Below, piece by piece: positions 2,657 through 39,620 of a DNA stretch of 64,000 nucleotides. A program made the position numbers and the translations under genes. Below the pieces are notes generated by a model. It did no database searches and was not told the origin of the DNA. It saw only the letters and a list, made by a program, of their open reading frames with translations. Location: assembly GCA_963742735.1 (NCBI GenBank), contig CAVUMN010000003.1, forward strand, positions 832,001-896,000, read 5' to 3'. Every line of letters starts with the position of its first letter. Within the stretch, counting starts at the first letter, position 1. Source of the DNA: an uncultured Actinomycetes bacterium (GTDB lineage Bacteria > Actinomycetota > UBA4738 > JBBDTT01).

Positions 2657-2662
2657 GACCTC

Positions 2663-4604: not shown

Positions 4605-4646
4605 GCGCCACCTTCGGGTCGCGGGTGGCGTGGTTCAATCGTCCGC

Positions 4647-20946: not shown

Positions 20947-22419
20947 CCAGCCGCGTGGGCGCGCCGGTCCGGACGCGCCGGGCCGAACCTGCCCACCAGC
21001 CTCAAGGACCTCTCGCGCCCCGGCCGACGGGCGTCGAGTCTGCCGACCCCGGACGTCCCGGCGGTCGAGATCCCCGCGGAGCATCGCCGGGCCGAGCCGC
21101 CGCCGCTGCCCGAGGTGGGGGAGCGGGACCTGGTCCGCCACTTCACCCGGCTGGCCCAGATCAACTACGGCGTGGACACGGGCTTCTATCCGCTCGGGTC
21201 GTGCTCCATGAAGTACAACCCGAAGGTGGCCGAGGAGGTCGCGGGGCTGGCCGGGTTCCGCCGGCTGCACCCGCTGCAGCCCGAGTCGACGGTCCAGGGG
21301 GCGCTGGCCCTGATCCACGGGCTCGAGCAGCTGTTGTGCGAGATCACGGGGATGGCGCGGGCCACGTTCCAGCCCGCCGCGGGCGCGTCGGGCGAGCTCA
21401 CCGGCCTGCTGATCATGCGGGCTTTCCACACGAAGAACGGCGACGCCCGCCGCAAGATCGTGATCCCGGACTCGGCGCACGGCACCAACCCGGCGAGCGT
21501 GACCCTGGCCGGCTACGACACCGTCGAGGTGCCCAGCGACGCCCGCGGCCTGGTCGACCTGTCGGCGCTGGAGAAGATGGTCGACGACGGCGTGGCCGGG
21601 CTGATGATCACCAACCCGAACACCCTCGGCCTCTTCGAGGAGGACATCCTGGAGATCGCCCGGATCATCCACGAGGCCGGCGGGCTCCTGTACTACGACG
21701 GCGCGAACCTCAACGCGATCCAGGGCGTGGTCCGCCCCGGCGACATGGGCTTCGACATCGTCCACATGAACACGCACAAGACGTTCGCGACGCCGCACGG
21801 CGGGGGCGGACCTGGGGCGGGGCCGGTGGCGGTGGCCGAGCGGCTGGTGCCGTTCCTGCCGGCGCCGATCGTCGAGTACGACACCGTGTCCAACCGCCAC
21901 TACTTCGACCACGACCGTCCCGACGCGATCGGGCGGGTCCACGGGTTCCACGGGAACTTCGGGATCGTGGTCCGTGCCTACGCCTACGTCGTCGCCCACG
22001 GCTCGAACGGGCTGCGCGAGGTCGCCGAGCGCGCCGTGCTGAACGCCAACTACCTGGCCAAGAAGGTCACCGGCGCCTTCCCACTCGCGTTCTCGGGGCC
22101 GCCCATGCACGAGTTCGTCTCGACCGCGAAGCGCTTGAAGGTGCACGGCATCCGGGCCATGGACATCGCGAAGCGCCTGATCGACCTGGGCTTCCACCCC
22201 TCGACCGTGTACTTCCCGCTGATCGTCGAGGAGTGCCTGATGGTCGAGCCGACCGAGACCGAGTCGCGGGAGACCCTCGACGCGTTCGCGGAGGCGCTCC
22301 TGCAGGCCGCCCGCGAGGCGGCGGAGAACCCGGACCTGCTCCACGAGGCGCCGCTGACCGCGCCGGTCCGCCGCCTGGACGAGGCCCGCGCCGCCCGCCA
22401 CCTCAAGGTCCGCTGGTAG
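20943..22419 (+). CDS. gcvPB: Glycine dehydrogenase subunit 2 (5' frameshift)
   Basis: PLGSCSMKYNP, SAHGTNPAS, PLP-lysine HKTFATPHGGGGPG, EPTETE. Confidence 0.95.
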
Positions 22420-23052
22420 CCCGCGACCCGATCCGGGCCGTCGTCTTCGACCTCGACGGGGTTCTGATCGACTCCGAGCCGGTGTGGCGCGAGGTCGAGG
22501 CCGAGGTCGCCGAGGCGTTCGGGTTCACCTACTCGGACGAGCTGGCTATGCGCATGCACGGCCGCGGCGTCCAGGGCGTCGCCGACATCGTGGCCGAGCA
22601 GCTGAGCGATCCGCAACGCGCACAGGCGGCCGCGGAGTCGATGGTCGAACGGATGGTCGAGCGAGGCTCGAGGGGGCTGGTCCCGGTGATGCCCGGCGCG
22701 CGGGAGCTGATCGATGCGACTCCGGGGTTCCGTGAAGCTGGCGGTCGCATCGAATTCTGTTCGGCGGTACGTCGAGGGCTCGATCGCGAGCCTGGGCCCG
22801 TTCGACGCGGTGGTGGCCGGCGACGAGGTCGACCACCCGAAGCCGGCTCCGGACGTCTACCTGCGAACTGCGGAGCGGCTGGGGCTGGCGCCGGCGGCGT
22901 GCGTGGCCGTCGAGGACTCCCCGGTCGGGATCGAGTCCGCCACGGCGGCGGGGATGCGCATCGTGGCGATCGCCGGCCTCGGCGGCGACCTCGGGATGCC
23001 CGCCTTCGACTCGCTGGCGGCCCTCACCGCCGAGGACCTGCTCGGGGCCTAG
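22413..23052 (+). CDS. HAD-family phosphatase (frameshift near 22720; start uncertain)
   Basis: VFDLDGVLIDSE, ASNS, KPAPD, VEDS..G. Confidence 0.85.
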
Positions 23053-25814: not shown

Positions 25815-25834
25815 GGGTGGTCTAGGGTTTCGCC

Positions 25835-26653
25835 GTGCTCCGCGCCGACTCCTATGGGCCCGTCACGCGCATCGACCTCACCGCGGGGCCGGCCGAGGGC
25901 GTCCGGTGGAGCGCGTGCTACCTGGTGGACGGGATCCTGTTCGACGCGGCGATGCATCACGGCCGAGCCGAGCTCGCGGCGTTCCTGGACGGCCGCGCCG
26001 GGACCGTCGCCCTCACCCACTGTCACGAGGACCACGCGGGGGGCGCGTCGGCCCTCGCCGGGGACGGCGTGCAGGTGCTGGCGCCGGCGAGCCACCTGGG
26101 CCTGCTCGCGCAGCCGGAGGACCTTCCGCTCATGCGGGAGGCGGTGTGGGGCCGGCCGGAACCGGTCGCCGGAGCGCCGCTGCCGGACGCGCTCGTCGAG
26201 GCCGGCCGCCGGTACGAGGTCGTGCCCACGCCGGGCCACTGCCCGCAGCACGTGGCCTTCGTTCACCGCGACGAGGGGTGGGTGTTCGCCGGCGACCTGA
26301 TCGCCGCGACGGAGCCCCGGCTGGCCCGGGCCGAGGAGGACCTGCCGGCAGCCGTCGCCTCGCTGCGGGCGGTGGCCGCGCTGGGCCCCGAGCGGCTGTT
26401 CCCGGCCCACCTGCCGGTCCCGGAGCGTCCCCTGGAGCCGATCGAGCGCCTGCTGGGGTACCTGGAGGACCGCGCGGCCGAGGCCAAGGCCCTGGCCGGC
26501 GCGGGCGCCTCGGAGGCGGAGATCGTCGAGCGGATGTTCGGCGGCGAGCACGTCTGGAGCCGCGCCCCGGCCGGCTCCCCCGTGACCGCGAGCGATATGA
26601 CCGGAGGGGACTTCTCGACCCTGAACCTGGTACGCGGGCTGCTGGACCTCTAG
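25835..26653 (+). CDS. MBL-fold metallo-hydrolase
   Basis: THCHEDHAGG, TPGH, FAGD, PAH. Confidence 0.88.
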   Translation: MLRADSYGPVTRIDLTAGPAEGVRWSACYLVDGILFDAAMHHGRAELAAFLDGRAGTVALTHCHEDHAGGASALAGDGVQVLAPASHLGLLAQPEDLPLMREAVWGRPEPVAGAPLPDALVEAGRRYEVVPTPGHCPQHVAFVHRDEGWVFAGDLIAATEPRLARAEEDLPAAVASLRAVAALGPERLFPAHLPVPERPLEPIERLLGYLEDRAAEAKALAGAGASEAEIVERMFGGEHVWSRAPAGSPVTASDMTGGDFSTLNLVRGLLDL

Positions 26654-26844
26654 CTCGAACGTACGTGCGACCCGCGCGGCCGGCCGGGGGAGCGGGCTCG
26701 GCGCCTCGCGATCGCGTCGAGCCGGGCGGGGGGTTTCGACCAAGCTGCCGCGCAGCGCACGTGCCGCGGCGGACGGGCGACCCGTGTTTTCCATGCCGAG
26801 GGGCTCCGGGGGCCGGAATGGCCAGGGGGTGCTCATTCCTGACT

Positions 26845-26872
26845 ACTTACCGTAATGGTGGTTATCGGGAGT
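26845..26872 (-). other. dif: Putative dif (XerC/XerD) chromosome dimer resolution site
   Basis: Minus strand ACTCCCGATAA-CCACCA-TTACGGTAAGT: 11-6-11 layout with TAA/TTA inner arms; lies between convergent genes. Confidence 0.7.
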
Positions 26873-26882
26873 TAGGGGGTGC

Positions 26883-27364: not shown

Positions 27365-29614
27365 TCAGGCGGCCCGGAACCGGTCCCGCCAGGCCCAGCG
27401 GGCCACCTTCAGCATCGCCTCGACGATGATGCCCCGGCTGATCTTCGAGACGCCGTGCTCGCGTTCGCGGAACGTGATCGGGACCTCGGCGACGGAGTAT
27501 CCACGGCGCCAAGCCCGGTACGCCAACTCGACCTGGAAGCCGTAGCCCCCGGAGGTGATCCCGCCGGCCAGCAGGTCCTGCAGGACGGTGCTCCGGTACG
27601 CGCGGTAACCGCTGGTGGCGTCGCGCAGGGGGAGTCGAAGGAGCGTCCGGGCGTACAGGTTGCCCCCCTTGGACAGGAGGACCCTCCCCCGGCTCCAGTT
27701 CGTCACCGCTCCCCCGGGCACGTACCGGGAGCCGATGACGACGTCGTGCTCGGCAGCCGCCTCGAGCAGGCGAGGCAGCTCCTCCGGCTGGTGGGACAGG
27801 TCCGCGTCCATCTCGACGATCACGTCGAAGCCCTCCTCCAGGCCCACCCGGAACCCCTCCTTGTAGGCCCCGGCCAGCCCCCGCTCCCCCTCTCGCGCCA
27901 GCAGCCGGACCCGCGGTTCGCCGTCCGCCAGCCCCGCCACGATCACCCCCGTCCCGTCCGGCGAGCCGTCGTCGACCACCAGGACCTGCACCCGGGGGTC
28001 GGCGGCCAGCACCCGGGTCACGACGTCCCGGATCGTGTCGCGCTCCTCGTAGGTGGGCAGGACCACGAGCGCCCAGCGCAGGTCGAGCGGCCCGGCGGGC
28101 TCGCGCCGGCTTCGGCGGGCCGGGGCGAACGCGAACGCCACGGCCACGCCCAGGCCGCACAGCAGCGGGAACCAGTCCCCGAACCGCGTGTAGATGGTGT
28201 GGCCCTCGATCCGGGGGATCTCCCGGCGCAGGACCGCCGGCTCGAACAGCTCGGTGGTCGCGACGACCTCCCCCCGAGGCGAGATGAACGCGCTGATCCC
28301 CGACAGCGCCGCATGGGCGATCCACCGGCCGTTCTCCGCGGCGCGGACCTGGCTGAGCGCCACGTGCTGGCGCGACAGCGCGGTGCGGCCGAACGTCGCG
28401 TTGTTGGTGCTGACGACGAGGAACGCCGGGGTGAAGGCCTCCTCTCGCTGGTTCACCGCACGGCGAACGAGGTCCGGGAACGAGTTCTCGAAGCAGATCA
28501 CGCTGGTGAAGCGCAGCCCCGGCCCCGCGTCCGCGGTCCCGAACATGACCGGCCCCTCCCCCGGCGCCATGTCCCGTGGGATGAGGGCCAGCTCCTTGAT
28601 GAACCCCAGCCGCTCCCGGAACGGCACGTACTCCCCGTACGGGACCGGCTTCTGCTTGCGGTACCGCTCCACCACGCCCCGCCCGGGCAGGTAGAAGTCG
28701 TTCTCGTTGGAGAACCGGCCGTCGGGGGCGTCGGTGATCGCCCCGATCAGGGTCGGAACTCCCACCTCCCCCACCGACGCGTCGATGAGCGCGGCGAGGT
28801 CCGGATTCGTGCTCGGATCACGGTCGATCGAGTTCTCCGGCCAGACGGCCAAATCGGGCGGAACGGACGCGAGAGTCAGGTGCAGGCGGGCGTGGTTCTG
28901 CGCCACCACCTGATCCTCGTAGAACCGGTCGAACAGGTGCCGCTCGGGGGCGTTGCCCTGCACGATCGCCACGTCCACGGGCGGGCTGTCGCCGGGCTCC
29001 AGCACCGGGATCAGGGCCGGGGCGACGGCGATGACGCCCGCGATCCCCAGGGCGAGGATCTTGCCCCTCCGCTCCCCCGTTCCGAAGGCCGCGACGATCG
29101 CCGCGTTGGCGAAGGCGACCACGAAGGAGATGCCCCACACGCCGGTCACCGACGCCAGCGGCAGGAGCAGCGGGTTGTCGTGCTGGGTGGTCCCCAGGGT
29201 CCCCCACGTGTAGCCGCCGGCCGGGAGGAAGGAGCGGATCAGCTCCATGACCGTCCACCACGCCGCGACGGCCAGGGCCGAGCGGACCGGCCGGTCGTCG
29301 TGCCACAGGGCCGGGACCAGGAACCCGAAGCCGGCGTAGGCCAGGGTGTAGGTCAGCGAGACCGGGAGCCAGCCGACCAGCCCGACCGTCTGGAAGATCC
29401 ACCAGGAGACCGCGCCGACGTAGGCCACCCCGAAGACGTAGCCGAGGAGGGCGGCCCGCCGCGGCCGGACGTCCTTGGTCAGCCAGATGATGGGGGCGGC
29501 GCCGACGAAGGCCAGCGGTCCGAGCTCGGCGGGCGGCAGGGCGAGGGACAGGAGCGCGCCGCTCACGGCGGCGATCGGGAGGGCGAAGGGGAGGGACGGA
29601 GCTCGGCCGCTCAG
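27365..29614 (-). CDS. lnt: Fused apolipoprotein N-acyltransferase / polyprenol-phosphate mannosyltransferase (Lnt-Ppm1); start uncertain
   Basis: WPE, YRKQKPVPYGE, ICFE nitrilase triad; then PTYEE, VDDGSPDGT, MDADLSH GT2 domain. Confidence 0.92.
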   Translation of the reverse strand: MSGRAPSLPFALPIAAVSGALLSLALPPAELGPLAFVGAAPIIWLTKDVRPRRAALLGYVFGVAYVGAVSWWIFQTVGLVGWLPVSLTYTLAYAGFGFLVPALWHDDRPVRSALAVAAWWTVMELIRSFLPAGGYTWGTLGTTQHDNPLLLPLASVTGVWGISFVVAFANAAIVAAFGTGERRGKILALGIAGVIAVAPALIPVLEPGDSPPVDVAIVQGNAPERHLFDRFYEDQVVAQNHARLHLTLASVPPDLAVWPENSIDRDPSTNPDLAALIDASVGEVGVPTLIGAITDAPDGRFSNENDFYLPGRGVVERYRKQKPVPYGEYVPFRERLGFIKELALIPRDMAPGEGPVMFGTADAGPGLRFTSVICFENSFPDLVRRAVNQREEAFTPAFLVVSTNNATFGRTALSRQHVALSQVRAAENGRWIAHAALSGISAFISPRGEVVATTELFEPAVLRREIPRIEGHTIYTRFGDWFPLLCGLGVAVAFAFAPARRSRREPAGPLDLRWALVVLPTYEERDTIRDVVTRVLAADPRVQVLVVDDGSPDGTGVIVAGLADGEPRVRLLAREGERGLAGAYKEGFRVGLEEGFDVIVEMDADLSHQPEELPRLLEAAAEHDVVIGSRYVPGGAVTNWSRGRVLLSKGGNLYARTLLRLPLRDATSGYRAYRSTVLQDLLAGGITSGGYGFQVELAYRAWRRGYSVAEVPITFREREHGVSKISRGIIVEAMLKVARWAWRDRFRAA

Positions 29615-29943
29615 GCGCAGTCGACGCAGAACATCCGCCGCTTGTCGGCCAGCTGGCTGCGGTGCTTCACCAGGAAGCAGTTCTTGCACGTGAACTCGTT
29701 GGCCTGAAGCGGGACCACCTTGACGGCCAGAGGCTCGACCCGCTCGTCCCGCTCGAGGGTGAGCAGCGACTCGTCGTCCTCTTCCTCGGGGACCTTCTCT
29801 TCGGGGGCCCGCTTGGCGAGCAGCTCGTCCAGGCTCGACTCGACCGCCTCGCCCTCGACGGGCTCGGGCACGACGACGGCCTCGGCGTCCTCTTCGTCGT
29901 CGTCCTCGACCTCGGCGTCCTCGATCAGCTCTTCGTCTTCCAC
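29611..29943 (-). CDS. DUF4193 family protein
   Basis: Acidic N-terminus; VVPLQANEFTCKNCFLVKHRSQLA...CVDC. Confidence 0.88.
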   Translation of the reverse strand: MEDEELIEDAEVEDDDEEDAEAVVVPEPVEGEAVESSLDELLAKRAPEEKVPEEEDDESLLTLERDERVEPLAVKVVPLQANEFTCKNCFLVKHRSQLADKRRMFCVDCA

Positions 29944-29977
29944 GGTCCCCTCGCTCGGCCCGGTTCGGCGGTTGCGC

Positions 29978-30005
29978 ATTGTACGCCTCGCCACAGCCCT
30001 GTAAA
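29978..30005 (-). promoter_or_regulatory. Promoter TTTACA-16-TACAAT for the DUF4193-lnt operon
   Basis: Near-consensus hexamers on the minus strand. Confidence 0.6.
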
Positions 30006-30188: not shown

Positions 30189-30221
30189 TGAGCGGATCCG
30201 TGCTCAAGCACGGAATCCCTC

Positions 30222-30246
30222 AACCCTTTATCGCAGGTTGAGGGTT
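30222..30246. promoter_or_regulatory. FtsR-like operator AACCCTTTATCGCAGGTTGAGGGTT
   Basis: ACCCTT-N11-GAGGGT, same geometry as the 14629-14651 palindrome. Confidence 0.55.
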
Positions 30247-30324
30247 CGTGCTCGCTCCGTGCTCAGCCCAGCGCGACCCGGGCGATCCTTGGGCCTGTCG
30301 GTCCCCGGGGGTATGCTGCGGCTC

Positions 30325-31395
30325 GTGACCCCCCCGGAAACGCCCGCTCTCGCATACTCGGGCGCCGATCTCGCCGACGCCCGGGGCCTCGACGACGCCG
30401 CCGGGTTCGTGATCGACCTCCTGGAGCATCCGGCCTCGACCGTGCGGATCATGGAGGGCCAGCTCGGCCTGTCCGAGGACGTGGTCTTCGACGGCCACCC
30501 CGATGCGTTCGCGATGCAGGCCGTGGCCGCCGTCTCGCCGGGGACGGTGTGGGCGGTCGACGGCGGGTCGTGCCTCCTCGCCGACGGCCGGTCGTTCCAG
30601 GTCGCGGCGTACCGCGCGTCGCGGGTCCGGTTCCGCGCCGGCGTCACCGATCTGGTCGAGTCGCCGCCGCTGCAAGTCCGCGCCCTGTCCCACGAGGAGA
30701 TGGAGCGCATCGCGCGGGAGGTCCTCACCGAGCTCTGGGGGACGGAGCCCGAGCGGCTCCCCGAGACGCCCCGGCCGGTCGACGCGCTCCGCGAGTGGGC
30801 GGAGTGGGCGGAGGTCCGCCGGACGATCCGCGACGCGTCGCCCGGCGACCTGGTCCTGGTCGACGGCTCGCTCCACGGCGGGCCCCTCGTCCCGGCCGGC
30901 GTCGTCCGATCGATCCACGACGAGGCGGTCTCCCGCGGCGTGGCCCTGGCCGGGGTGGTCAAGGCGTCGACGTTGTTCTGGGGGCGCAACGCCCCCCTCG
31001 TCACCCTGCTGAAGCGCCGGGGCGACCGGGAGCTGGGGCGGGTCTGCTGGTCGGCCCGGATCTCCACCGAGCCCACCTTCGCCCGCCTCTACGTCGGCGA
31101 CATCTTCGTGGCCCACCTGGCGCCGACGGCCCCGTACGCCTTCCGGGTCGACGTCGCCCGCGGCGAGTCGCCCCCCGGCGAGATCCTGGCGCGGCTGGCC
31201 GGCTGCGCGGACGACCCCGCCTTCGTCGGCTACCCCTATCCCCTGGCCCGGGCCCACCAGGCGGCCCGGGTCTCCGGCTATGCGGTGGCCGACCTCCGCC
31301 GGACGTTCCGCGACGCCCTGTCCCGCCACGGCATGGGCCACGACGACATCGAGGTCCTGTTCCAGGACTTCCACGAGGTCCTGAACAGGAGCTAG
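30325..31395 (+). CDS. nurA: NurA DNA double-strand break repair nuclease
   Basis: WAVDGGS, LVLVDGSL, GVVK.S, GYPYPLARAH..ARVS; TATGCT -10 7 nt upstream suggests a leaderless GTG start (ATG 30313 is an alternative). Confidence 0.85.
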   Translation: MTPPETPALAYSGADLADARGLDDAAGFVIDLLEHPASTVRIMEGQLGLSEDVVFDGHPDAFAMQAVAAVSPGTVWAVDGGSCLLADGRSFQVAAYRASRVRFRAGVTDLVESPPLQVRALSHEEMERIAREVLTELWGTEPERLPETPRPVDALREWAEWAEVRRTIRDASPGDLVLVDGSLHGGPLVPAGVVRSIHDEAVSRGVALAGVVKASTLFWGRNAPLVTLLKRRGDRELGRVCWSARISTEPTFARLYVGDIFVAHLAPTAPYAFRVDVARGESPPGEILARLAGCADDPAFVGYPYPLARAHQAARVSGYAVADLRRTFRDALSRHGMGHDDIEVLFQDFHEVLNRS

Positions 31396-31397
31396 CG

Positions 31398-32969
31398 ATG
31401 ACCGAGTACAAGGGCCGCATCTTCGGCAAACACGTCCTGGAGGCCCAGTTCCGGGCCTACCACGGCACCGACCTGTTCCTGGGCGAGCTCCTGTCCGCCG
31501 AGGACCCCGAGCGGGCCCGCCGGTTCCTGTTCAGGGTCATCCAGGTGACCTACGGGTCCGATTCGTCCGATCCGTCCTGGGCGGAGCGCACCGCCGGCGC
31601 CTACATGACCGGGGACCAGGCCGGAACCCCGTACGAGCTGCACGACCCCGAGCAGCGCCTGCACAAGGTGGCCACGTGCGCCCCCCTCGGCTACATCGAC
31701 CCCGCCGGGGAGTTCCGCAAGCCGAAGTCCCTCACCGCCCAGTTCGCCAGGGTCACCGCGCCCACGGCGGAGGACTTCTCCTTCCTGCGCGAGCGGATGG
31801 GAGACCTCCGCGTGGGCCTGCTCCGCAGCGGCGAGGACACCATCGACCTGGAGGTCGGCATCCGGGGCGAGACCCTCACCTCCCACATGGGGGTCTTCGC
31901 CACGACCGGCATGGGCAAGTCGAACTTGATGAAGGTCGTGGCCGGGACCATCCTCGAGTCTCAGGGCCGCTACGCGACGCTGCTGTTCGACCCGCACGGC
32001 GAGTACCTGGATGGCGGGGGCGGGGGCCGCCGCGGGCTGCGGGACCACCCGTGGGCCGGCGACCGGCTCAAGGTCTACGCGACCCGGTCGGGGTCGGGGG
32101 CGGCGCACACCGCGCTGCGCCTGTCGCTCGCCGAGCTCACCCTGGCCGACCTCCAGACCGCGTACGACTGGAGCCGGGCCCAGGACGAGGCCATCTACCG
32201 CCTGGAGCGCCTGTACCGAGAGGACTGGCTGCCGACCGTCGCCTCCGAGGGCCAGGACCTCCAGGAGCTGGCCGAGCAGACCGGCTCGACCACGGCCACG
32301 CTGCAGGTCATCCAGCGCCGGGCCCGGCGGATCCTCGACCTGCCCTGCATCAGCCGCGACCCGTCCCAGCCGTCGCTCTCGGAGCGGATCGTCGAGGAGC
32401 TCTCGAACGGCTACTCCGTCCTGGTGGAGACGAGCGGGCTGTCGAGCATGGAGGAGATCCTGGTCGCCTCGGTGATCACCCGCCGGCTGCTCGACACCTA
32501 CGCCGACGCGTTCCTGGAGGACCGCGAGGCCTTCGAGCGCCTCCCCCCCACGCTGGTGGCGTTGGAGGAGGCCCAGCGGGTCCTGTCCCGCGTGAAGCGC
32601 TCCGACGACAACGTCTTTCCCCGCGTGGCCAGGGAGGGGCGGAAGTTCCGGGTCGGGCTGTGCGCGGTGTCCCAGCAGCCGAAGCTCATCGACGACGAGC
32701 TGCTCTCGCAGTTCAACACCTTCTTCATCCTGGGCCTGGCCGACGAGAAGGACCGCAACATCCTGCGGGCGTCCTCGAAGCAGGACATCGGCGACCTCGG
32801 CCCCGAGATCCAGACCCTCATGCCCGGCGAGGCGATCGTGACGAACCTCGAGGCGCCGTTCGCGCTGCCCGCCAGGGTGTTCCTGTACGAGGACTACCTG
32901 AAGGCCGTGACGGGGCCATTGCCGCTCCCGCCCCCGCCCGAGGGCGCCTCGAGGGGCTTCGCCGAGTAG
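31398..32969 (+). CDS. herA: HerA helicase/translocase (FtsK-HerA ATPase)
   Basis: HMGVFATTGMGKSN Walker A, FDPHGEY, LEEAQR Walker B, AREGRKF.VGL..VSQQP. Confidence 0.9.
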   Translation: MTEYKGRIFGKHVLEAQFRAYHGTDLFLGELLSAEDPERARRFLFRVIQVTYGSDSSDPSWAERTAGAYMTGDQAGTPYELHDPEQRLHKVATCAPLGYIDPAGEFRKPKSLTAQFARVTAPTAEDFSFLRERMGDLRVGLLRSGEDTIDLEVGIRGETLTSHMGVFATTGMGKSNLMKVVAGTILESQGRYATLLFDPHGEYLDGGGGGRRGLRDHPWAGDRLKVYATRSGSGAAHTALRLSLAELTLADLQTAYDWSRAQDEAIYRLERLYREDWLPTVASEGQDLQELAEQTGSTTATLQVIQRRARRILDLPCISRDPSQPSLSERIVEELSNGYSVLVETSGLSSMEEILVASVITRRLLDTYADAFLEDREAFERLPPTLVALEEAQRVLSRVKRSDDNVFPRVAREGRKFRVGLCAVSQQPKLIDDELLSQFNTFFILGLADEKDRNILRASSKQDIGDLGPEIQTLMPGEAIVTNLEAPFALPARVFLYEDYLKAVTGPLPLPPPPEGASRGFAE

Positions 32970-34108
32970 TGGCGCGCCTCGTCGCGCTCGGTGACGCGCA
33001 CCTGGGACGGGCCCACCTGGCCCACCTTCGCGACGACGAGGGCCGCCCCGTCCGCGAGGAGGACTTCCTGCGGTCCTTCGACTGGGCGATCGAGGAGACC
33101 CTGCGACAGGAGCCCGACGGCTTCCTGTGGCTGGGCGACGTCTTCGACCACGCCCGGCCCTCGTACCGGGTCTTCGCGCGGGTGCTCGCCGGGCTCCAGA
33201 AGCTCACCGACGCCGGGCTGCGCGGGGTGGCCATCAGCGGGAACCACGACACACCCCGCCTGCGGGGCACCGGCTCGCCGTACGACGCCCTGGAGCGGGT
33301 GTTCCCCTCCACGGCCTTCGCGTGGCGCCTGGAGGGCTTGAGCGCCGACCTGGCCGGCGTGCGCGTCTTGGCCGTCCCCCAGACCAACACGGTGGAGGAG
33401 TTCAAGGCCGAGCTCGAGCGGGTCACCCCGGAGGCCGGCGGCGACGCCACGAGCCTGCTCATCGCGCACGTGGCCCTGTCCTCGCTGCCCACCCGGGACT
33501 GGCGGGACATGAACGAGCTGGAGGTCACGGCCGCCGACCTGGGCCGCCGGTTCGACCTGGTGGTCCTGGGGCACTACCACCAGCACCTGAAGTCCTCGGC
33601 GAAGACCTGGTACGCGGGCTCGACGGACTCGTTCGGGTTCGGCGACCGCCCCAACGACAAGGTGGGGCCGAAGGGGCTTCTCGTCGTGGACACCGACGCC
33701 GGGAAGGTCGAGCTGGTCCCGAACCCGCACGAGCGCCCGCTGCTCACCCGGCAGGTCGACGCCGCGTCGCTGGGCCCCTCCGAGCTCCTGGAGGCGGCCG
33801 AGCGGGAGGGGGCGGGCGCGCCGGAGGGCGCCATCGTCCGCATCTGGCTGAACGCGGTGGATCCGGCCGCGTACCGCCAGCTCACCCAGGGCGAGTTCCA
33901 GGAGGCCGTTCCCGGCGCGCTGTTCGTCCAGGTCGAGCCGGACTGGGGCGCCGGCGCGCTGTCCGTCCAGGGGGGCATCGAGATCGGGAGCCTGGAGTCC
34001 GAGTGGGGCACCTACGTGGACGGTCAGGACCTGGCCGGGCTGGAGCGGCCGCGGGTGCGCGACCTGGGGGCCCGGTTCCTGGAGGCGGCCCGGGGGGAGG
34101 CCGTCTAG
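32969..34108 (+). CDS. mre11: Mre11/SbcD nuclease
   Basis: DAHLG, GDVFD, GNHD, AH and GHYH phosphoesterase motifs. Confidence 0.9.
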   Translation: MARLVALGDAHLGRAHLAHLRDDEGRPVREEDFLRSFDWAIEETLRQEPDGFLWLGDVFDHARPSYRVFARVLAGLQKLTDAGLRGVAISGNHDTPRLRGTGSPYDALERVFPSTAFAWRLEGLSADLAGVRVLAVPQTNTVEEFKAELERVTPEAGGDATSLLIAHVALSSLPTRDWRDMNELEVTAADLGRRFDLVVLGHYHQHLKSSAKTWYAGSTDSFGFGDRPNDKVGPKGLLVVDTDAGKVELVPNPHERPLLTRQVDAASLGPSELLEAAEREGAGAPEGAIVRIWLNAVDPAAYRQLTQGEFQEAVPGALFVQVEPDWGAGALSVQGGIEIGSLESEWGTYVDGQDLAGLERPRVRDLGARFLEAARGEAV

Positions 34109-34111
34109 CCG

Positions 34112-36394
34112 GTGCGCGCGCTGGAGCTCTCGCTTCGCAACTACCGGGTGTTCGAGGAGCTCGAACTCGAGCTTCCCTCGCGGGTGATCGGGGTCTTCGG
34201 GGCGAACGGCAGCGGCAAGTCGACGCTGGTCGAGTCGATCGGGGTCGCCCTGTACGGCCTGGACTTCGCCCGGACCCCGAAGCAGCAGATCCGGACCCAG
34301 GGCCTGCTGACCGACTGCCGCATCCGGCTGGTCTTCGAGCACGCCGGTACGCAGTACGAGGTGCGCCGCGAGATCCGCGGCAAGAACCACTCGACCGACG
34401 CCGAGCTCTTCGCGAAGGACGCCCGGCTGGCGGTGGGCGTGACCGAAGTCGACGCCGAGATCCGCCGGCTGCTGCGGATGGACCGCCAGGTGTTCCGGGC
34501 CAGCGTCTTCGCCGAGCAGAAGCAGCTCGACGCGTTCAGCGACCTGACCAAGTCCAAGCGCAAGGAGATGGTCCTGCGCCTGCTGGGCATCAAGCCCGTC
34601 GACGACGCCCGGACCGCCGCGCGCGCCGAGGCCCGGGGCAAGGCGCGCGACGCGGAGAACCTGGTCGGCTCGCTCCCCGACCTGCCCGCGCTCGAGACCG
34701 AGCTGGCGGCGGCCACGGAGGCCGCGGGGGCCGCGGAGGCGGCCGCGACGGGTGCCCACCAGGCGCTCACGGACGCCGAGGTCCGGGCGCAGACGGCCGA
34801 CGCCGCCTTCGCCGAGGCCGACCGGATCCGCGCCGAGACCGAGCGCGTCGGGGCGCTCCGGGCGGCCACGGGCGCGGAGCTCGATCGCGCCGCGAAGCGC
34901 GCCGCGGAGCTGGACGGCCGCCTGATCGAGGCCCGGGAACGCCTGGCCGGCCTGCGGGACCTCCAGGCCGAACGGGAGGCGCTCGCGGACGCGCGGGAGC
35001 GCCTCGGGACGGCCCGGGAGCTCGTGCGGGAGGCCGAAGCCCTGGCGAAGCTCCAGGCGGAGCTCGAGGGTCTCCCCGAGGTCGACGCGAGATCCGCGCT
35101 TGCCGAGCTGGAGGCCGCGGACGCCGCGCGCGCCGCCGCGCAGCAGGCCGCGTCGGACGCCGCCGCAACGCAGCGAGTCGCCGAAGGGGCGGCCGAGACC
35201 GCCCGCCGCGCGGTCGAGTCCGCCGGCACGCTCGACCCGTCCGAGCCATGCCCCACGTGCGGCAACCCGCTCGGCGACGCGTTCGAGAACCTGGTGAAGC
35301 ACCGTCAGGACGACCTCACGCGGCTGGAGACGGACGCGGCAGCCAGCGCGAAGGCGGCGACCGCGGCGGCGGCCGGGCAGGCCAAGGCCGAGAAGGTCCT
35401 GAAGGTCGCGCAGACGGCCGCCGAGGCCGCGCAGACGGCGCTGTCCCGGCGGGCCCAGCTCGCCGCCGCCGTGGAGGAGGCCGGCGCGCGAGTCCTTGCT
35501 CTCGCCGAGACCTTTCCCGAGGGGACCCCGGACGTCGTGGCGCTCGAGGCGGCGGCGGCCCGTGCGGGCGAGCTCGACAAGCTGCTGGCCCGGCTCGAGG
35601 CGGACGCGGAGCAGCTGGCGCACCTCGAGGCGGACCAGGCCGCCGCGGCCGAGGAGGCGTCGGCGTGCGGGGCTCGCCTCATGGAGCTCGACCGGGAGGC
35701 CGCCGGCCTGGCGTTCGACCCGGAGGACCACGCCCGTGTGGCCAAGGAGCGCGACGAGGCCCGGACCCTGCTCGCTCAGGCCCGGGAGCGCGACCGGGAG
35801 GCCGCCGCACTCGCCAAGGACGCGGCGGCGGCGCGAGCCGTCATCGAGGGCCGCCTGCAGCAGGCGCGGGAGACCGCCGCGCGCGTGGGCACGCTGCGGG
35901 ACGACGCGCGGTACCTCGAGCGCGTGACGGTCCTGCTCGACGGGTTCCGGGACCATCTGGTTGCCCGGATCGGCCCCGAGCTCTCCCGCGAGGCGGAGGC
36001 GCTCTTCCGCGAGCTCACCAACCACGAGTACGAGGACCTGAAGATCGCGGAGGACGACCTGGCGATCCAGATCGCCGACGCCGGCACGTACTTCGACATG
36101 GCGCGGTTCTCGGGCTCCGAAACCGACCTGGCGAACCTGGCCCTGCGCGTGGCGATCTCGATGCACCTCTCGCGCATGGCCGGGGCGGACGTCGGGATGA
36201 TGGTCCTGGACGAGGTGCTCGGCTCGCTGGACGCGGAGCGCCGCGACCTGATGGTCCAGGCCCTGGGCAAGCTGGCCGACCGCTTCCACCAGCTGTTCGT
36301 GATCACCCACGCCGAACCGGTGAAGGACGCCTTCCCCGCCTCGATCGAGGTCCGCAAGACCGGCCGGCGGCGCAGCGACGCCCGGCTCGTCTGA
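34112..36394 (+). CDS. rad50: Rad50/SbcC SMC-like ATPase
   Basis: GANGSGKST, long coiled coil, CPTC zinc hook, FSGSE signature, LDEVLGSLD, ITH. Confidence 0.93.
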   Translation: MRALELSLRNYRVFEELELELPSRVIGVFGANGSGKSTLVESIGVALYGLDFARTPKQQIRTQGLLTDCRIRLVFEHAGTQYEVRREIRGKNHSTDAELFAKDARLAVGVTEVDAEIRRLLRMDRQVFRASVFAEQKQLDAFSDLTKSKRKEMVLRLLGIKPVDDARTAARAEARGKARDAENLVGSLPDLPALETELAAATEAAGAAEAAATGAHQALTDAEVRAQTADAAFAEADRIRAETERVGALRAATGAELDRAAKRAAELDGRLIEARERLAGLRDLQAEREALADARERLGTARELVREAEALAKLQAELEGLPEVDARSALAELEAADAARAAAQQAASDAAATQRVAEGAAETARRAVESAGTLDPSEPCPTCGNPLGDAFENLVKHRQDDLTRLETDAAASAKAATAAAAGQAKAEKVLKVAQTAAEAAQTALSRRAQLAAAVEEAGARVLALAETFPEGTPDVVALEAAAARAGELDKLLARLEADAEQLAHLEADQAAAAEEASACGARLMELDREAAGLAFDPEDHARVAKERDEARTLLAQARERDREAAALAKDAAAARAVIEGRLQQARETAARVGTLRDDARYLERVTVLLDGFRDHLVARIGPELSREAEALFRELTNHEYEDLKIAEDDLAIQIADAGTYFDMARFSGSETDLANLALRVAISMHLSRMAGADVGMMVLDEVLGSLDAERRDLMVQALGKLADRFHQLFVITHAEPVKDAFPASIEVRKTGRRRSDARLV

Positions 36395-36400
36395 ACCCGC

Positions 36401-39400
36401 TCAGCCTCCCCAGCGGGTGGTGAGGTAGTCGGCGCGAACCACGTTGCCCTTGGAGCGGTAGATGCGGGCGGCCTCGATGCCGGCCTCCGCCGCCTCCCGG
36501 TCCTTGCCGGCGGCGCCGAGGACCTCGGCCAGGTCCGCGTACGCGTCCCCCTGGTTCTGCGGGAAGTCGGTGCGCAGGCTGAACTCCACGGCCTCGCGGG
36601 CCAGCGTCTCGGCCTGCTCGTGCTCCCCTCGCGCGGCCATGACCCTCGCCCGGACGCACCGCCACAGGATCTGGGCGTCCAGGTCGTCGTCGTCGGCGAA
36701 CTCCTCCCCGACGACCGACATCTCCTCGGCCTCCTCCATGCGTCCGAGGGCCACCAGCACCTGGCCGAGCACGCACGCGGTCGAGCACAGGTAGCTGCGC
36801 TCCCCCATGCGCTCCAGGACCTGGTACGCCTCGCGGAGCTCGCGTTCCGCGCCCTCCAGGTCGCCGGAGAGCACGTAGACCACGGCCCGGTCCTGCGAGG
36901 TGCTCGCCCGCATCAGCGTCATGCCCAGCTGATCGAACAGCTCGGTGCTGCGGGTCATCACGGCGCGGGCCTCCTCGAAGCGGCCCATCATCGCCAGGAA
37001 GCCGGCCATCGCGTTGCGGACCCGCGCCTCCACCTTCAGGCTCGGTTCGGCGGTCCGCAGCGTGCGGTCCAGCCAGTGCACGCCCTCCTCGGCGGGGGTC
37101 GGCCCGTAGAAGATCGCGGACACCATCTCGGTGACCATCTGGGTCTCGTCGCGGGGGGCCCCGGCCAGGCGGGCGTGCTCCAGGGCGCGGGTCAGCGCCG
37201 TCGTGGCGGTCGGCCATCCGTCCCCACAGGTTGTACGCGCGGGCCCGCAGGTGCCACGCTCGGGCCAGGCCCAGCTCGTCTCCCGCGGCCTCGAACACCG
37301 GGATCACCTCGTCGGAGACCTGCGACTCCTGGTCCGCCATCCCCTGGGGATCGGTCAGGATGCGGGTCTTCACCAGGGCGATGCGCAGGTGGGCCTCGGC
37401 GACCCGGTCGCCGACGGCGCGCGTCTCGGCGAGCGCCGACTCGAGCAGCTCGATCGCGCGCGCGAACCGGCCGGCCTCGCCCAGAGCCTCCGCCAGGTCC
37501 GGCACCAGGGCGACCCGGCGCGAGAGGGTGGGCTCGATCGCCACCGCGCGATCGAGCAGGCTGACCGTGGCCGGCACGTCGCCCCGGGCCATGGCCCGGT
37601 TCCCCGCCGACGCGAGCGCCGCGGCGGCCATCCCGGCCAGGTCGCGGACCTCCTCCTCGGCGCCGCCGAGCTCGGCCCGGTACCGGTGTGCCTGCTCCAG
37701 GTGGTAGCCGACGATCTCGTCCTCCTCGGCCCGCACGCCGACGCGGGTGGCGAGCCACGTCGCGAACCCCTCGTGCAGGCCCGCCCGCGTCTCCTTGAGC
37801 ATCCCCTGGTACGCCGCGTCGCGGATCAGCAGGTGGGTGAAGCGCCAGGTGCCGGGCTCCGCCGAGGGCTCCTCCTGGGGGCGGACCAGATCCCGCCGCG
37901 CCAGGGCCTGCAGCCGCTCGCCCACCCGCGGCCGCTCCTCCGGCGGGGTCAGGGCCCACACGGTGCGCTCGTCGAACTGCTTGCCGACCACGGACGCGCG
38001 CTCGATGACGGCCCGCTCGGACGGCGGCAGCCGGTCCAGGCGGGTCGCGAGCAGCGCCTGGACGGTCGGCGGGACCGTGACCGAGCCCAGGTCGCCGGCG
38101 GCCACCCACCGGCCGCCCTCCTGGCGGAGCAGGCCGTCGTCGATGAGCGTCCGGAACACCTCGCCCACGAACAGGGGGTTGCCCTCGGCGGCCTCGGCGA
38201 TCCGCCGGCGGGCCTCCGGGGGAAGCGCGCCGCCCGGGGCGAGCTGCTCGAGCAGCGTGTCGCTCTCGTCGGCGGTGAGCGGGGCCAGGCTCAGCAGGGC
38301 CGAGCGGCCGTCGTCCGTGCCCCAGCCCGGGCGGGCCTCGAACAGCTCCGGCCGGCTGGGGGCGAGGATCAGCACGGCCGCGTCCTCGCCCTGCTGCACC
38401 AGCCCCTCCACCAGGTCCAGGAAGGTCGACTCCGCGGCGTGGAGGTCGTCGAACACCACGACCACCGGGCGTTTCCCAGGCGAGGGTCTCCAGGAACCGC
38501 CGGGCTCCCCAGAACCCCGTCTCGAGCGTCGAGACCTCCGGGTCGAACCCGAGCAGCCCCGCCAGCCGCTGGGCGATCAGCTCGGCGTCCCCCGCGTCGG
38601 CGACGGCTCGGCGGATCTTGTCGCGCGCCGCGGCCGGGGCGTCGTCGTCCAGGATGCCGGACGCCATCTGCACCACCTCGAGCAGCGGCCAGAAGGTGAT
38701 GCCGTCGCCGTACGGCAGGCACCGGCCCCGCAGAACCGTCGCCGTGGCCGCCACGGTCTCCACGAACTCCTGGACCAGGCGCGACTTGCCGACGCCGGGG
38801 TCGCCCACGATCGTGACCAGCCGGGTGGACCCCGACTCCCGGACCTCCTCGAAGGACGCCCCCAGCCGTTCGAGCTCGTCGCGGCGCCCCACCATCGGGG
38901 TCTCGAGCCGGGCCGGGCGCTCCCGGGGCCCGCCGTCCAGGCTCACCACGCGGAACGCGTCGACGGCCTCGTGGCGGCCCCGAAGCGGGATCGAGGCCAC
39001 GGGCTCGGTGACCACGGTGGTCGCGACCAGCCGGTGCGTCTCCGGGCCGATGAAGATCTCGCCCACCCCGGCCTCTCGCTGCAGCCGGGAGGCCACGTTC
39101 ACGGCGTCGCCCAGGACCAGGGCGTGCCCGGGCTCGGCGGCCGCCCGGCGACCACCTCCCCGGTGTTCACGCCCGTTCGGATCGCCAGCTCGACCCCCAG
39201 GGTGGCCCGCAACTCGGCGTTCAGGGCGCCGAGCGCGGCGTTGACCTCCGTGGCGGCCCGCACGGCGCGCAGGGCGTCGTCCTCGTGGAGCTGGGGAACC
39301 CCGAACACCGCCATGACCGCGTCGCCGATGAACTTCTGGACGGTCCCCCCGTGGCGCTCCAGCGAGGTTCGCGCCGTCTCGAAGTAGCGGCGCATGACCG

Positions 39401-39587
39401 ACCGCAGGGACTCGGGGTCGAGCCGCTCGGCCAGGCCCGTCGAGCCGACCACGTCGAGGAACACCACGGTGACCGTCCGGCGGGTCTCGGGCGCGTCGGC
39501 GGCGGGGGCCGTGAGGGGCTGGCCGCACGCCAGGCAGAAGCGGCCGTGCTCGGGGTTGTCCTCGCCGCAACGGGCGCATCGGGGCAT
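36401..39587 (-). CDS. Zinc-ribbon + class III adenylate/guanylate cyclase + AAA (STAND) + TPR protein; frameshifted
   Basis: CARC..CLAC, KFIGDAVMAVFG, GDAVNVASRLQ, GDPGVGKS, FDDLHAA, GNPLF, TPR-like helices. Confidence 0.9.
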
Positions 39588-39620
39588 GCGCGTACGGTAC
39601 CCGGCCACTCTCGCGTTGGG

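Follow-up and report, generated by a model that had tools for sequence, protein, structure and literature searches.

The window analysed here, a stretch of 64,000 nucleotides, belongs to the 3.08 Mb genome (88.9% complete) of an uncultured soil-type actinobacterium. Four stop-free open reading frames lie on its plus strand at positions 30325-36394, in the order nurA-herA-mre11-rad50, where the first-pass annotation had placed them. They are preceded by a predicted promoter, and the window also holds a dif candidate:

26847..26868: AT-rich imperfect palindrome, candidate dif site, between convergent genes
30296..30317, plus strand: PafBC (RecA-NDp)-type promoter, TGTCGG-N10-TATGCT (-26 element and -10 box), read from the sequence
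30325..31395, plus strand: nurA, NurA-family nuclease of 356 aa (Pfam, motifs, AlphaFold2 fold)
31398..32969, plus strand: herA, HerA/FtsK-superfamily ATPase-translocase of 523 aa (Pfam DUF87, match to PDB 4d2i)
32969..34108, plus strand: mre11 (sbcD-like), phosphoesterase nuclease of 379 aa (Pfam Metallophos, motifs)
34112..36394, plus strand: rad50 (sbcC-like), ABC ATPase of 760 aa; short coiled coil, CPTC zinc hook at its centre, signature variant FSGSE

The genes are tightly packed, with a 2-nt gap between nurA and herA, a 1-nt overlap between herA and mre11 and a 3-nt gap between mre11 and rad50, indicating that the translation of all four is coupled. Their GC content (0.72-0.76, against 0.70-0.75 in the flanks) is host-like, and their GC3 of 0.95-0.98 is like that of the adjoining genes. 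The operon has housekeeping genes as neighbours (DUF4193 and a Lnt-Ppm1 fusion), and no mobility, defence or DNA-modification genes were found among the 22 flanking ORFs scanned (15.9-45.1 kb of the window). The first-pass description of four tightly packed genes with diagnostic motifs, including the FSGSE variant, agrees with the ORFs, Pfam thresholds and motif positions, and its description of a host-like region devoid of mobility genes agrees with the GC and GC3 values and the 22 flanking ORFs.

The four proteins

The NurA and HerA calls, which had been left to confirmation by HMM, both score above their Pfam cut-offs (29.9 bits against 21 for NurA, 78.3 bits against 23.2 for DUF87/HerA). 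NurA, the weakest call of the four by sequence, is supported by an AlphaFold2 model (pLDDT 86.5, pTM 0.84) that matches solved NurA structures in a Foldseek search of the PDB. The top match is S. solfataricus NurA (2ygk, E 1.2e-10), the second is 8wfd_G, the TdpB component of TdpAB, and the NurA proteins of T. kodakarensis and D. radiodurans follow, among matches that include 9x1m and 7f6d (7f6d_G, E 1.6e-7). The protein carries the motifs AVDGG (D79), LVDGSL (D180) and GYPYPLARAH (H311), corresponding to DG motifs I and II and AH motif III as defined in the relevant passage of PMC13748450. All of 17 aligned orthologues share D79/G80, D180/G181 and GYPYPL, and H311 is almost as constant.

HerA is better conserved than the other three, with 78-91% identity within the order. 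It has a Walker A motif, GMGKS, at 171 and a conserved EE at 390-391, and G171, G173, K174, E390 and E391 are invariant across 26 sequences. Its best PDB sequence match is S. solfataricus HerA (4d2i, E 5.6e-23); none of the nine PDB chains matched at E <= 0.001 is labelled as Deinococcus, in a set whose chain labels carry no organism names. Mre11 (Pfam Metallophos, 39.1 bits against a cut-off of 21.5) has motifs I (DAH, 9), II (GDVFD, 56), III (GNHD, 91) and V (GHYH, 201), and its best PDB sequence matches are archaeal Mre11 proteins (3auz and 1ii7). The SbcD_C domain of Pfam is absent from it, and is present in the type-2 cluster of relatives. Rad50 exceeds the Pfam cut-offs for AAA_23 (68.3 bits) and SMC_N (51.1 bits), and carries Walker A at 30, the signature at 666, Walker B at 696, the H-loop at 730, and a CPTC zinc hook at 380-383, the midpoint of its 760 residues. 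Its best PDB sequence matches are archaeal and Thermotoga Rad50 proteins (3aux, 3qkt).

The Rad50 signature reads FSGSE in place of the canonical SGGE. Among 18 orthologues of 749-797 aa, in all of which hook and signature were checked, FSGSE is fixed in the loci of the own order, in family f14 and in one locus of family f80 (L049), and the deeper families keep SGGE.

The NCBIfam equivalog models for archaeal HerA, with helicase_HerA among them, for archaeal NurA, Mre11 and Rad50, for anti-phage HerA and for bacterial SbcCD do not reach their cut-offs with any of the four proteins: NurA scores 16 against 400 (NurA_Sulf), HerA 91 against 800 (HerA_Thermprot) and 55 bits against 800 (HerA_antiphage), Mre11 57.7 bits against 500 (Mre11_Sulfo) and 49.6 against 77.65 (sbcd, TIGR00619), and Rad50 116.9 bits against 700 (PRK03918) and 77.5 against 478.5 (sbcc, TIGR00618). 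As judged from these profile scores, the four proteins are homologues, and not equivalog-level members, of the NCBIfam families.

Comparison with known systems

The same four families form one co-directional, tight cluster in archaea (Sulfolobus/Saccharolobus, Pyrococcus and Thermococcus). The likeness extends to the canonical NurA motifs I-III, the CxxC zinc hook of Rad50 and the best-matching solved structures, which are archaeal (4d2i, 2ygk, 3auz, 1ii7, 3aux and 3qkt), and the lean towards archaeal relatives that the first-pass annotation had seen is borne out by the best PDB sequence matches of HerA, Mre11 and Rad50. However, the archaeal order is herA-mre11-rad50-nurA, whereas here it is nurA-herA-mre11-rad50 in a bacterial host, with proteins far under the equivalog cut-offs, a shorter Rad50 that has FSGSE in this subclade, a promoter of bacterial PafBC type, and AdnAB and Ku in the same genome.

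Among bacteria, Deinococcus radiodurans and Thermus thermophilus also have an adjacent nurA-herA pair and a related NurA fold (7f6d; PMC9960219, PMC5448004). The passages of PMC5448004 concerned with these species describe the pair as not linked to mre11-rad50, and summarise loss of nurA or herA in Deinococcus as leaving radioresistance apparently unaffected. Their NurA DG motifs are called degenerate in the corresponding passage of PMC13748450, whereas both DG motifs are intact here and invariant across the alignment. PMC5448004 also notes in passing a nurA-hepA-sbcD-sbcC cluster in Oceanithermus profundus, where SbcD and SbcC are encoded directly downstream of nurA-herA. With this four-gene precedent in print, the operon itself is not new to bacteria; the published cluster belongs to another phylum (Deinococcota), and the passages on it offer neither a distribution survey nor a link to regulation.

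A predicted PafBC-type promoter

The element at 30296-30317 matches every position of the published PafBC (RecA-NDp) consensus, tGTCgg(N10)tA(N3)T without a -35 element, as given in the relevant part of PMC8635444. It ends only 7 nt before the GTG start codon of nurA, so the nurA transcript is predicted to be leaderless. The architecture is identical to that of the mycobacterial PafBC regulon (PMC8635444, PMC6789036), with tGTCgg at -26, a TANNNT -10 box and no -35 element, and the resemblance includes PafB and PafC encoded beside pafA and the motif before recA and adnAB-like genes. The pafA-pafB-pafC locus lies on the same contig as the operon (C3:912955-918489) and encodes a Pup_ligase protein, a WYL+WCX protein and an HTH_PafC+WYL+WCX protein.

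The strict motif has only 12 matches in the 3.08 Mb genome, five of which are 6-7 nt upstream of the start of an ORF (nurA and the genes for the AdnA-like protein, a UvrD-type helicase, a UPF0102/YraN-like protein and an HD dGTPase-like protein). A relaxed leaderless scan gave 26 matches, 12 of them starting with TGTC; matches of the latter kind also precede RadA/Sms-like, ComM-like, PD-(D/E)XK, DUF222-HNH and ComF-like genes. Upstream of recA, both an SOS-box-like palindrome and a PafBC-type motif are present.

In 13 of 13 genomes of the order the motif is present with its spacing unchanged, and the start codon follows the -10 box by 6-8 nt; with three unpublished genomes (G031, G006 and G027) set aside, the count is 10 of 10. 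The flanking sequence diverges, and no upstream columns are conserved other than tGTCgg, TATcCT and the distance of 6-8 nt to the start codon. Across 83 loci scanned, the in-frame leaderless motif was found in 14, all from the own order, and in none of the f14, Acidimicrobiia or non-actinobacterial loci. Two further loci of the own order (L067 and L069) miss the in-frame criterion, and L067 is the same DNA as L020, where the motif is present. Damage control of the operon may thus be particular to this lineage, or the promoters of the other loci may be of a different kind.

A leaderless PafBC-dependent promoter would place the operon among the genes induced in the DNA-damage response; both PafBC binding and induction are predictions from sequence. 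What is new here, at that level, is the PafBC-type motif before nurA, shared with adnAB, recA and the RadA-like gene. Apart from a Myxococcus paper (PMC12288472) in which PafBC occurs alongside HerA, SbcC and SbcD, no paper naming NurA or HerA together with PafBC was found among those listed in a literature search.

Distribution and ancestry

Within the order NurA is patchy, being found in 16 of 41 genomes, and the order nurA-herA-mre11-rad50 is seen in 11 of the 41, namely the host and 10 of the other 15 genomes with NurA. Of the loci fetched from a sample of the phylum, 15 belonging to other families and two to the own order, 17 of 17 keep the same order as far as the contigs reach; so do 46 of 64 named Actinomycetota/Acidimicrobiia loci. 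HerA is universal (21/21) in one family. The operon, presented in the first-pass annotation as an oddity of an actinomycete-like genome, is on these counts common in several actinobacterial lineages, and the survey of related genomes that was proposed as a check goes against its being unusual, as does the published Oceanithermus cluster.

In the HerA tree 62 of 63 actinobacterial rows form one clade (SH-aLRT 100) with three deep subclades, so the operon has long been resident in these lineages and did not enter them recently. The proposal of an ancient presence is thereby sustained, as it is by the gene order kept across families. Thermoplasmatota form a separate clade, in a tree whose base is unresolved. 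More than 120 clusters are listed with at least 79% identity, and wherever a source is named for them it is Actinomycetota. The genes flanking the operon differ among most members of the order. The slot beside DUF4193 and Lnt-Ppm1 can hold either the operon or a very divergent NurA/HerA-like/SbcD/SbcC cluster, a pattern suggestive of an exchangeable "resection cassette".

Alternative explanations

Recent horizontal import from archaea would explain why the nearest non-actinobacterial relatives of HerA include Thermoplasmatota (44-49% identity), and why PDB and NCBIfam profile scores lean archaeal for HerA, Mre11 and Rad50. The single actinobacterial HerA clade apart from Thermoplasmatota, the exclusively actinobacterial source names among the close clusters, the native promoter and the host-like composition all speak against it, as do the closest archaeal loci, nine of ten of which show NurA-HerA only, without Mre11 or Rad50 within the DNA examined; we consider such an import extremely unlikely. 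Hardly more credible is a role as substitute for AdnAB or RecBCD after the usual helicase-nucleases had been lost from the lineage. RecC (PF04257) was indeed not found in the 88.9%-complete host genome, and the first-pass annotation had suggested that the operon may replace AdnAB; however, the genome check that it called for revealed adjacent genes of AdnA/AdnB architecture (UvrD-helicase plus PD-(D/E)XK, 977 aa and about 1100 aa, C4:545611-551888), preceded by their own PafBC-type leaderless promoter. Across the order, 38 of 41 genomes encode an AdnA-like protein, as do all 27 of high quality, with or without the operon, and the three genomes in which it is missing are 61%, 69% and 86% complete. 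Nor is there anti-correlation with the operon: nine of 11 carriers have an AdnA-like protein, G001 (61% complete) and G015 (86%) being those where it is missing. Substitution is therefore contradicted by the AdnAB-like pair that accompanies the operon in the same genome. Two Ku genes are also encoded there. A third reading, in which the operon sits beside dif because its task is to process the terminus or fusing forks, draws on contig C3, whose cumulative GC skew peaks at about 860 kb (about 28 kb in the window), on a switch of gene orientation around 26.7-36.4 kb of the window, and on the palindrome at 26847-26868, which is unique in the genome. Proximity to the terminus, as first proposed, is thus plausible in this genome, but it is not conserved: the palindrome was not found in four relatives at up to 2 mismatches, and in two single-contig relatives (genomes of 3.13 and 3.45 Mb) the operon lies about 842 and 892 kb from dnaA, roughly mid-replichore on the assumption of an oriC near dnaA and symmetric replichores. 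Given also that flanking genes vary across the order and that gene position says little about site of action, this reading is very improbable.

Somewhat better placed, yet still unlikely, is an anti-phage or foreign-DNA degradation module, in which linear dsDNA entering the cell would be detected by a Rad50-like sensor and broken down by HerA-NurA, a role proposed for some HerA-nuclease systems of bacteria and archaea. The NurA model has as its second-best fold match TdpB, a component of the TdpAB defence system. HerA matches generic PADLOC HerA models and mad8, Rad50 matches the mad3 and LmuB models, and NurA is patchy within the order. A 2026 review states, in the passage concerned, that characterised bacterial NurA-HerA mainly degrades foreign DNA (PMC13748450). 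Like TdpAB, Sir2-HerA and DUF4297-HerA, the present system would pair a HerA-type, putatively hexameric ATPase with a nuclease. However, PADLOC gives nothing for NurA or Mre11, and its HerA matches cover the C-terminal ATPase part only; the HerA_antiphage score is far below its cut-off; and no partner effector (Sir2, DUF4297 or TdpC-type modification) was found among the 22 neighbouring ORFs. The housekeeping context free of defence, modification and mobility genes, the host-like composition, the monophyly of HerA within the phylum and its universality in one family, and a damage-type promoter common to adnAB, recA and the RadA-like gene likewise argue against defence.

Proposed role

The operon is probably a chromosomal, long-resident module for processing double-strand break ends, induced by damage via PafBC and serving as a second resection route beside AdnAB. 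We infer enzymatic activities and complex formation from homology to the archaeal and Deinococcus systems. Mre11-Rad50 would recognise DNA ends, tether them through the zinc hook, and open or clean them, and a HerA hexamer would then feed the duplex into a NurA dimer, such that the 5' strand is degraded and a 3' tail left for RecA. Transcription would start at the predicted leaderless PafBC-dependent promoter, the ssDNA-sensing actinobacterial damage response switching on the operon together with adnAB, recA and the radA-like gene. The operon would thus act in parallel to AdnAB, in a cell that also encodes Ku-dependent end joining. Counting against this reading are the scores below every NCBIfam equivalog cut-off, the FSGSE signature, the restriction of the in-frame motif to the own order in the scanned loci, the review's view of bacterial NurA-HerA as chiefly degrading foreign DNA, the radioresistance reported as apparently unaffected in Deinococcus, and a host genome that is 88.9% complete. 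More tentatively, and with rather less than even confidence, we suggest the broader picture of an archaeal-style two-stage machine (Mre11-Rad50 plus HerA-NurA) wired into the PafBC regulon of mostly uncultured Actinomycetota as a second inducible pathway beside AdnAB, its slot being an exchangeable cassette.

To our knowledge, only the Deinococcus and Thermus NurA-HerA pairs have been studied among bacteria, and whether bacterial NurA-HerA repairs the cell's own DNA or destroys foreign DNA is unsettled. The four-gene order conserved across lineages, together with the damage promoter in one order, provides a concrete example in which a repair role can be tested, along with the idea that a single bacterium has two inducible resection routes working in parallel. 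As the parts are already known and the organisms are uncultured, the advance is a moderate one. If the two-stage, PafBC-controlled reading is true, bacterial NurA-HerA would serve in repair, at the least within this phylum.

The nurA-herA-mre11-rad50 operon

The operon is real, intact and well conserved. Its four forward-strand ORFs lie where the first-pass annotation had placed them, and are joined in order by a 2-nt gap (nurA/herA), a 1-nt overlap (herA/mre11) and a 3-nt gap (mre11/rad50).

Genes of the operon and its flanks (window coordinates)
27365-29566, -, Lnt-Ppm1-type fusion gene, upstream, divergent
29611-29994, -, DUF4193 gene, upstream, divergent
30325-31395, +, nurA, 356 aa, ORF without internal stop
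31398-32969, +, herA, 523 aa, ORF without internal stop
32969-34108, +, mre11, 379 aa, ORF without internal stop
34112-36394, +, rad50, 760 aa, ORF without internal stop
36401-37138, -, TPR protein gene, downstream, convergent
within 36401-39608, -, adenylate-cyclase / AAA_16 gene, downstream, convergent

Spurious ORFs are plentiful at the 71-72% GC of this genome (58 of at least 80 aa in one 15-kb stretch); the operon genes have GC3 values of 0.95-0.98 and GC2 values of 0.46-0.52, and neighbouring real genes are alike. A 2223-aa “ORF” at 19629-26300 (+) is an artefact of high GC, overlapping, in other frames and on the opposite strand, real genes for a glycine-cleavage P-protein fragment, a HAD hydrolase and an M14-peptidase protein.

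All four proteins exceed Pfam gathering thresholds, with 29.9 bits for NurA (cut-off 21), 78.3 bits for HerA (DUF87/HerA), 39.1 bits for Mre11 (Metallophos), and 68.3 and 51.1 bits for Rad50 (AAA_23 and SMC_N, respectively), so that the NurA and HerA calls made by eye hold up against HMMs. None of the four reaches an NCBIfam equivalog cut-off; below the cut-offs, the top models are archaeal for HerA (HerA_Thermprot, 91 bits), Mre11 (Mre11_Sulfo, 58 bits) and Rad50 (PRK03918, 117 bits), and the bacterial models are weaker (sbcd 50 bits, sbcc 78 bits). The top PDB sequence matches are Sulfolobus solfataricus HerA (4d2i, E 5.6e-23) for HerA, the Mre11 proteins of M. jannaschii and P. furiosus for Mre11, and archaeal and Thermotoga Rad50 for Rad50. 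NurA is the weakest family call by sequence, matching 2ygk at E 0.014 only, in an alignment that covers motifs II and III, and therefore 17 orthologues were aligned and the protein was folded. The predicted structure (pLDDT 86.5, pTM 0.84) has S. solfataricus NurA as its leading Foldseek match (E 1.2e-10), followed by TdpB of TdpAB and the NurA proteins of T. kodakarensis and D. radiodurans. By the definitions in excerpts of PMC13748450, the catalytic motifs AxDGG (D79), LVDGSL (D180) and GYPYPLA-AH (H311) are all intact, and they vary little or not at all across the alignment.

Mre11 carries the motifs DAH, GDVFD, GNHD and GHYH. Rad50 has its Walker A motif at 30, the signature FSGSE at 666, Walker B at 696, the H-loop at 730 and a CPTC zinc hook at 380-383, the exact middle of the protein; all 18 orthologues examined are 749-797 aa long and have a CPxC hook. 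The variant signature, already noticed in the first-pass annotation, is real and not an error, being fixed in all examined loci of the window's own order and of family f14 of the phylum sample, and in the single locus of family f80 (L049); deeper families retain F/YSGGE.

Genomic context and position relative to the terminus

The operon is flanked by ordinary chromosomal genes. A scan of 22 ORFs from 15.9 to 45.1 kb of the window revealed no transposase, integrase or defence gene, and the GC content of the operon (0.72-0.76) is like that of its surroundings (0.70-0.75), in agreement with the host-like composition and lack of mobility genes initially reported. PADLOC returned no match for NurA or Mre11, and only generic, partial ATPase matches for HerA and Rad50. 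The downstream genes at 36401-39608 (-) form a signalling set with adenylate/guanylate cyclase, AAA_16 and TPR domains, convergent with the operon, and these neighbours also come after the operon in a genome of the same genus (locus L019). In that locus, the herA/mre11 junction has a gap of about 700 bp (2885-3589).

The first-pass annotation had set the operon about 3.5 kb from a putative dif, with a conceivable role in terminus processing. The cumulative GC skew of the window's contig (C3) is maximal at about 860 kb, or about 28 kb of the window, and genes switch from + to - orientation in the stretch from about 26.7 to 36.4 kb of the window, which puts the operon no more than about 10 kb from a likely terminus in this genome. 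No match to the E. coli dif 28-mer was found in the window at up to three mismatches, and a simple ATAAT...TTAT palindrome scan of the window gave nothing. The sole AT-rich element near the implied position, at 26833-26873, includes an imperfect palindrome (26847-26868) between convergent genes at the GC-skew maximum, which is probably what the first-pass annotation meant by “putative dif”. This candidate has one copy in the genome, and was not found in four genomes of the order at up to two mismatches. In two single-contig relatives (3.13 and 3.45 Mb), about 842 kb and 892 kb separate the operon from dnaA, a mid-replichore position provided that oriC lies close to dnaA. Thus, although the proximity to the likely terminus stands for this genome, the linkage is not conserved, and a terminus-specific role is without comparative support. 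Also between convergent genes, just past the end of a gene with a metallo-beta-lactamase fold, is TCGAACGTACGTGCGA (26655-26670), which presumably differs from the palindromic SOS box of actinobacteria at a single position and, given this location, is probably no promoter operator.

Distribution and phylogeny

The Pfam NurA model gives matches in 16 of the order's 41 genomes; for the 15 other than the window's own, the surrounding DNA was fetched for comparison. Ten of these, three of them unpublished (G031, G006 and G027), carry the same nurA-herA-mre11-rad50 cluster, with identities to the window's proteins of 68-81% for NurA, 78-91% for HerA, 61-83% for Mre11 and 51-74% for Rad50. The other five, one of them unpublished (G030), carry a different and strongly divergent cluster, here called type-2. 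The order counts are lower bounds, since genome G024 has a HerA orthologue though it was missed by the NurA model. Type-2 clusters (locus L029 of genome G004, 1079-7515, and loci L021, L023, L024 and L025) are found in genomes that do not have the window's operon. Their members are a NurA-like gene scoring 20 bits, a gene for a 568-aa ATPase that has no Pfam match and resembles HerA only weakly (E 0.002), a gene for an SbcD that includes an SbcD_C domain, and a gene for an SbcC of 868 aa. In G030 the type-2 cluster borders on the DUF4193 and Lnt-Ppm1 flank that also adjoins the operon in the window's genome and in G008; no match to this flank was found at the other four type-2 loci.

With HerA as query, 36 genomes of an even sample of 401 from the phylum gave a full-length match at 48% identity or more, nine of them in the window's own order. 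HerA is present in 21 of 21 genomes of family f14 (61-64% identity), in three of four of f13, and once each in f36, f67 and f73 (48-51%) and f80 (59%), with none in most families of the sample (e.g. 0/26, 0/19 and 0/28); the remaining 29 matches are paralogues at 24-32% identity. For 17 loci of this sample (15 from other families, two from the own order) the DNA was retrieved, and each retains the four-gene order as far as its contig extends. A collection of 5.8 billion proteins holds, among the matches listed, at least 120 clusters besides the window's own at 79% identity or more, whose named sources are uncultured Actinomycetota MAGs without exception. GTDB species genomes contain at least 583 loci with HerA relatives, the best 80 of which, without exception from MAGs, comprise 64 from Actinomycetota/Acidimicrobiia, six from other bacteria (Ignavibacteria, Zixibacteria and Terriglobales) and ten from Thermoplasmatota archaea (44-49% identity). 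All four genes lie in order on one strand in 46 of the 64 actinobacterial loci, the other 18 (mostly short loci or ones ending near herA) having at least one gene absent from the available DNA; nine of the ten archaeal loci show NurA-HerA only, as far as their available DNA reaches. With ten further carriers in the order and these 46 loci, the operon is not the rarity that it was taken for. Four Acidimicrobiales MAG loci (L090, L099, L105 and L114) have at least one opposite-strand gene between herA and mre11, giving two units.

Of the four proteins, HerA was used for phylogenetic analysis (85 rows, partial rows L103 and L112 left out; quick IQ-TREE, LG+C20 PMSF, SH-aLRT support only). One clade with three deep subclades holds 62 of the 63 actinobacterial rows (support 100). 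Of the ten Thermoplasmatota rows, nine group in a clade of their own (support 97) and one (L136, Methanomassiliicoccales) is isolated on a long branch; the basal branching is without resolution. A recent import does not fit this tree, which is compatible either with long residence and many losses or with few old transfers within the phylum. The proposal that the operon was anciently acquired is therefore upheld as regards its old presence, but the tree does not settle an archaeal source.

A predicted PafBC promoter

The operon is preceded by a 330-bp divergent nurA/DUF4193 intergenic region, in which TGTCGG-TCCCCGGGGG-TATGCT (30296-30317) agrees at every position with the consensus of PafBC, the actinobacterial DNA-damage regulator. 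In excerpts of PMC8635444 and PMC6789036, the in-vivo consensus is tGTCgg(N10)tA(N3)T, i.e. a -26 element and a SigA -10 box with no -35 element. A spacing of 7 nt separates the -10 box from the nurA GTG (30325), so that a leaderless mRNA is predicted and an alternative TTG start at 30238 is disfavoured. About 50 nt 5' of the -26 element is a perfect 9-bp inverted repeat (30217-30244; CCCTCAACC, 10 nt, GGTTGAGGG), which might serve a different regulator as its operator.

Counted over the two strands of the complete genome, the strict pattern has 12 occurrences. Four are on contig C3, against 0-2 per 962 kb in five first-order Markov simulations of that contig. Five of the 12 are 6-7 nt 5' of an ORF start, the ORFs being nurA and those for AdnA-like, UvrD-type helicase, UPF0102/YraN-like and HD/HD_assoc dGTPase-like proteins; three are 39-46 nt 5' of gyrB, a sulfatase gene and a response-regulator gene, and four are without an ORF by the criteria used. 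A relaxed leaderless scan gave 26 matches, 12 of them starting with TGTC, which add RadA/Sms-like, ComM-like, PD-(D/E)XK, DUF222-HNH and ComF-like genes and two of unknown function. The resulting candidate PafBC regulon consists mostly of leaderless genes and includes recA, which has upstream both a PafBC motif and the palindrome TCGAACAGGTGTTCGA, which we take to resemble the actinobacterial SOS box.

Examples of candidate regulon sites from the genome-wide motif scan (contig:position)
C4:551887, -
C4:613843, -
C4:264499-265848, -
C3:584896, strand not given
C3:585311, strand not given
C3:644672, strand not given
C2:172611, strand not given

The regulator itself is encoded about 17 kb past the window's right end, in a pafA-pafB-pafC locus (C3:912955-918489) with Pup_ligase, WYL+WCX and HTH_PafC+WYL+WCX proteins. 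When 13 genomes of the order are aligned on the -10 box, only tGTCgg and TATcCT are conserved upstream, and an ATG or GTG follows the box by 6-8 nt in all 13 (conservation is 10 of 10 without the three unpublished genomes). The relaxed motif has only 97 occurrences genome-wide. An in-frame leaderless motif precedes nurA in 14 of 83 loci scanned, all in the own-order clade and overlapping in part with genomes counted elsewhere; it was not found in f14, Acidimicrobiia, other bacterial or archaeal loci, where nurA starts are uncertain because NurA N-termini align poorly. Since the motif is rare, conserved and in the company of repair genes, and the regulator is encoded, PafBC-type damage control of the operon is plausible on sequence grounds. 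Among the publications listed by our search, none was found to mention PafBC along with NurA or HerA by name, and one Myxococcus paper has the terms PafBC, HerA, SbcC and SbcD.

Other break-repair genes and proposed function

The assembly (3.08 Mb, five contigs, 88.9% complete) also encodes an adjoining pair of UvrD-helicase + PD-(D/E)XK genes with the architecture of AdnA/AdnB (C4:545611-551888), two Ku proteins and RecA. RecC was not found in it, and no second Mre11 or Rad50 was detected with the window's own proteins as queries. An AdnA-like protein is found in 38 of the 41 genomes of the order, including all 27 of high quality; the three without a match are 61%, 69% and 86% complete. The operon is therefore an addition alongside AdnAB, and not, as had been suggested, a possible replacement for it.

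NurA and HerA are a textbook pair. By homology with archaeal and Deinococcus systems, as described in excerpts of PMC3326311, PMC9960219 and PMC5448004, the operon most likely acts in end resection: Mre11-Rad50 would bind ends, bridge them via the zinc hook and make the first clipping, a HerA hexamer would move the duplex into a NurA dimer that degrades the 5' strand, and RecA would be loaded onto the leftover 3' tail. The main rival explanation, that the operon degrades foreign DNA, is disfavoured by its genomic context, by its vertical inheritance pattern and by its promoter type. For end resection, the predicted PafBC promoter would place the operon in a damage response triggered by ssDNA, beside AdnAB, and the sharing of this promoter type suggests two parallel inducible resection routes in addition to Ku-dependent end joining.

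The same parts in the same four-gene arrangement are already known from archaea, and a bacterial nurA-herA-sbcD-sbcC cluster is on record in Oceanithermus (excerpt of PMC5448004). Our literature search, whose scope was without the comparative studies of Iyer et al. 2004 and Constantinesco et al. 2004, found no publication on NurA-HerA in Actinobacteria. In excerpts of a 2026 review, the characterised bacterial NurA proteins are those of Thermus and Deinococcus only (PMC13748450), and the actinobacterial operon contradicts two of its generalisations on bacterial NurA. While the component genes themselves are already known, the operon offers a plausible and testable regulatory link.
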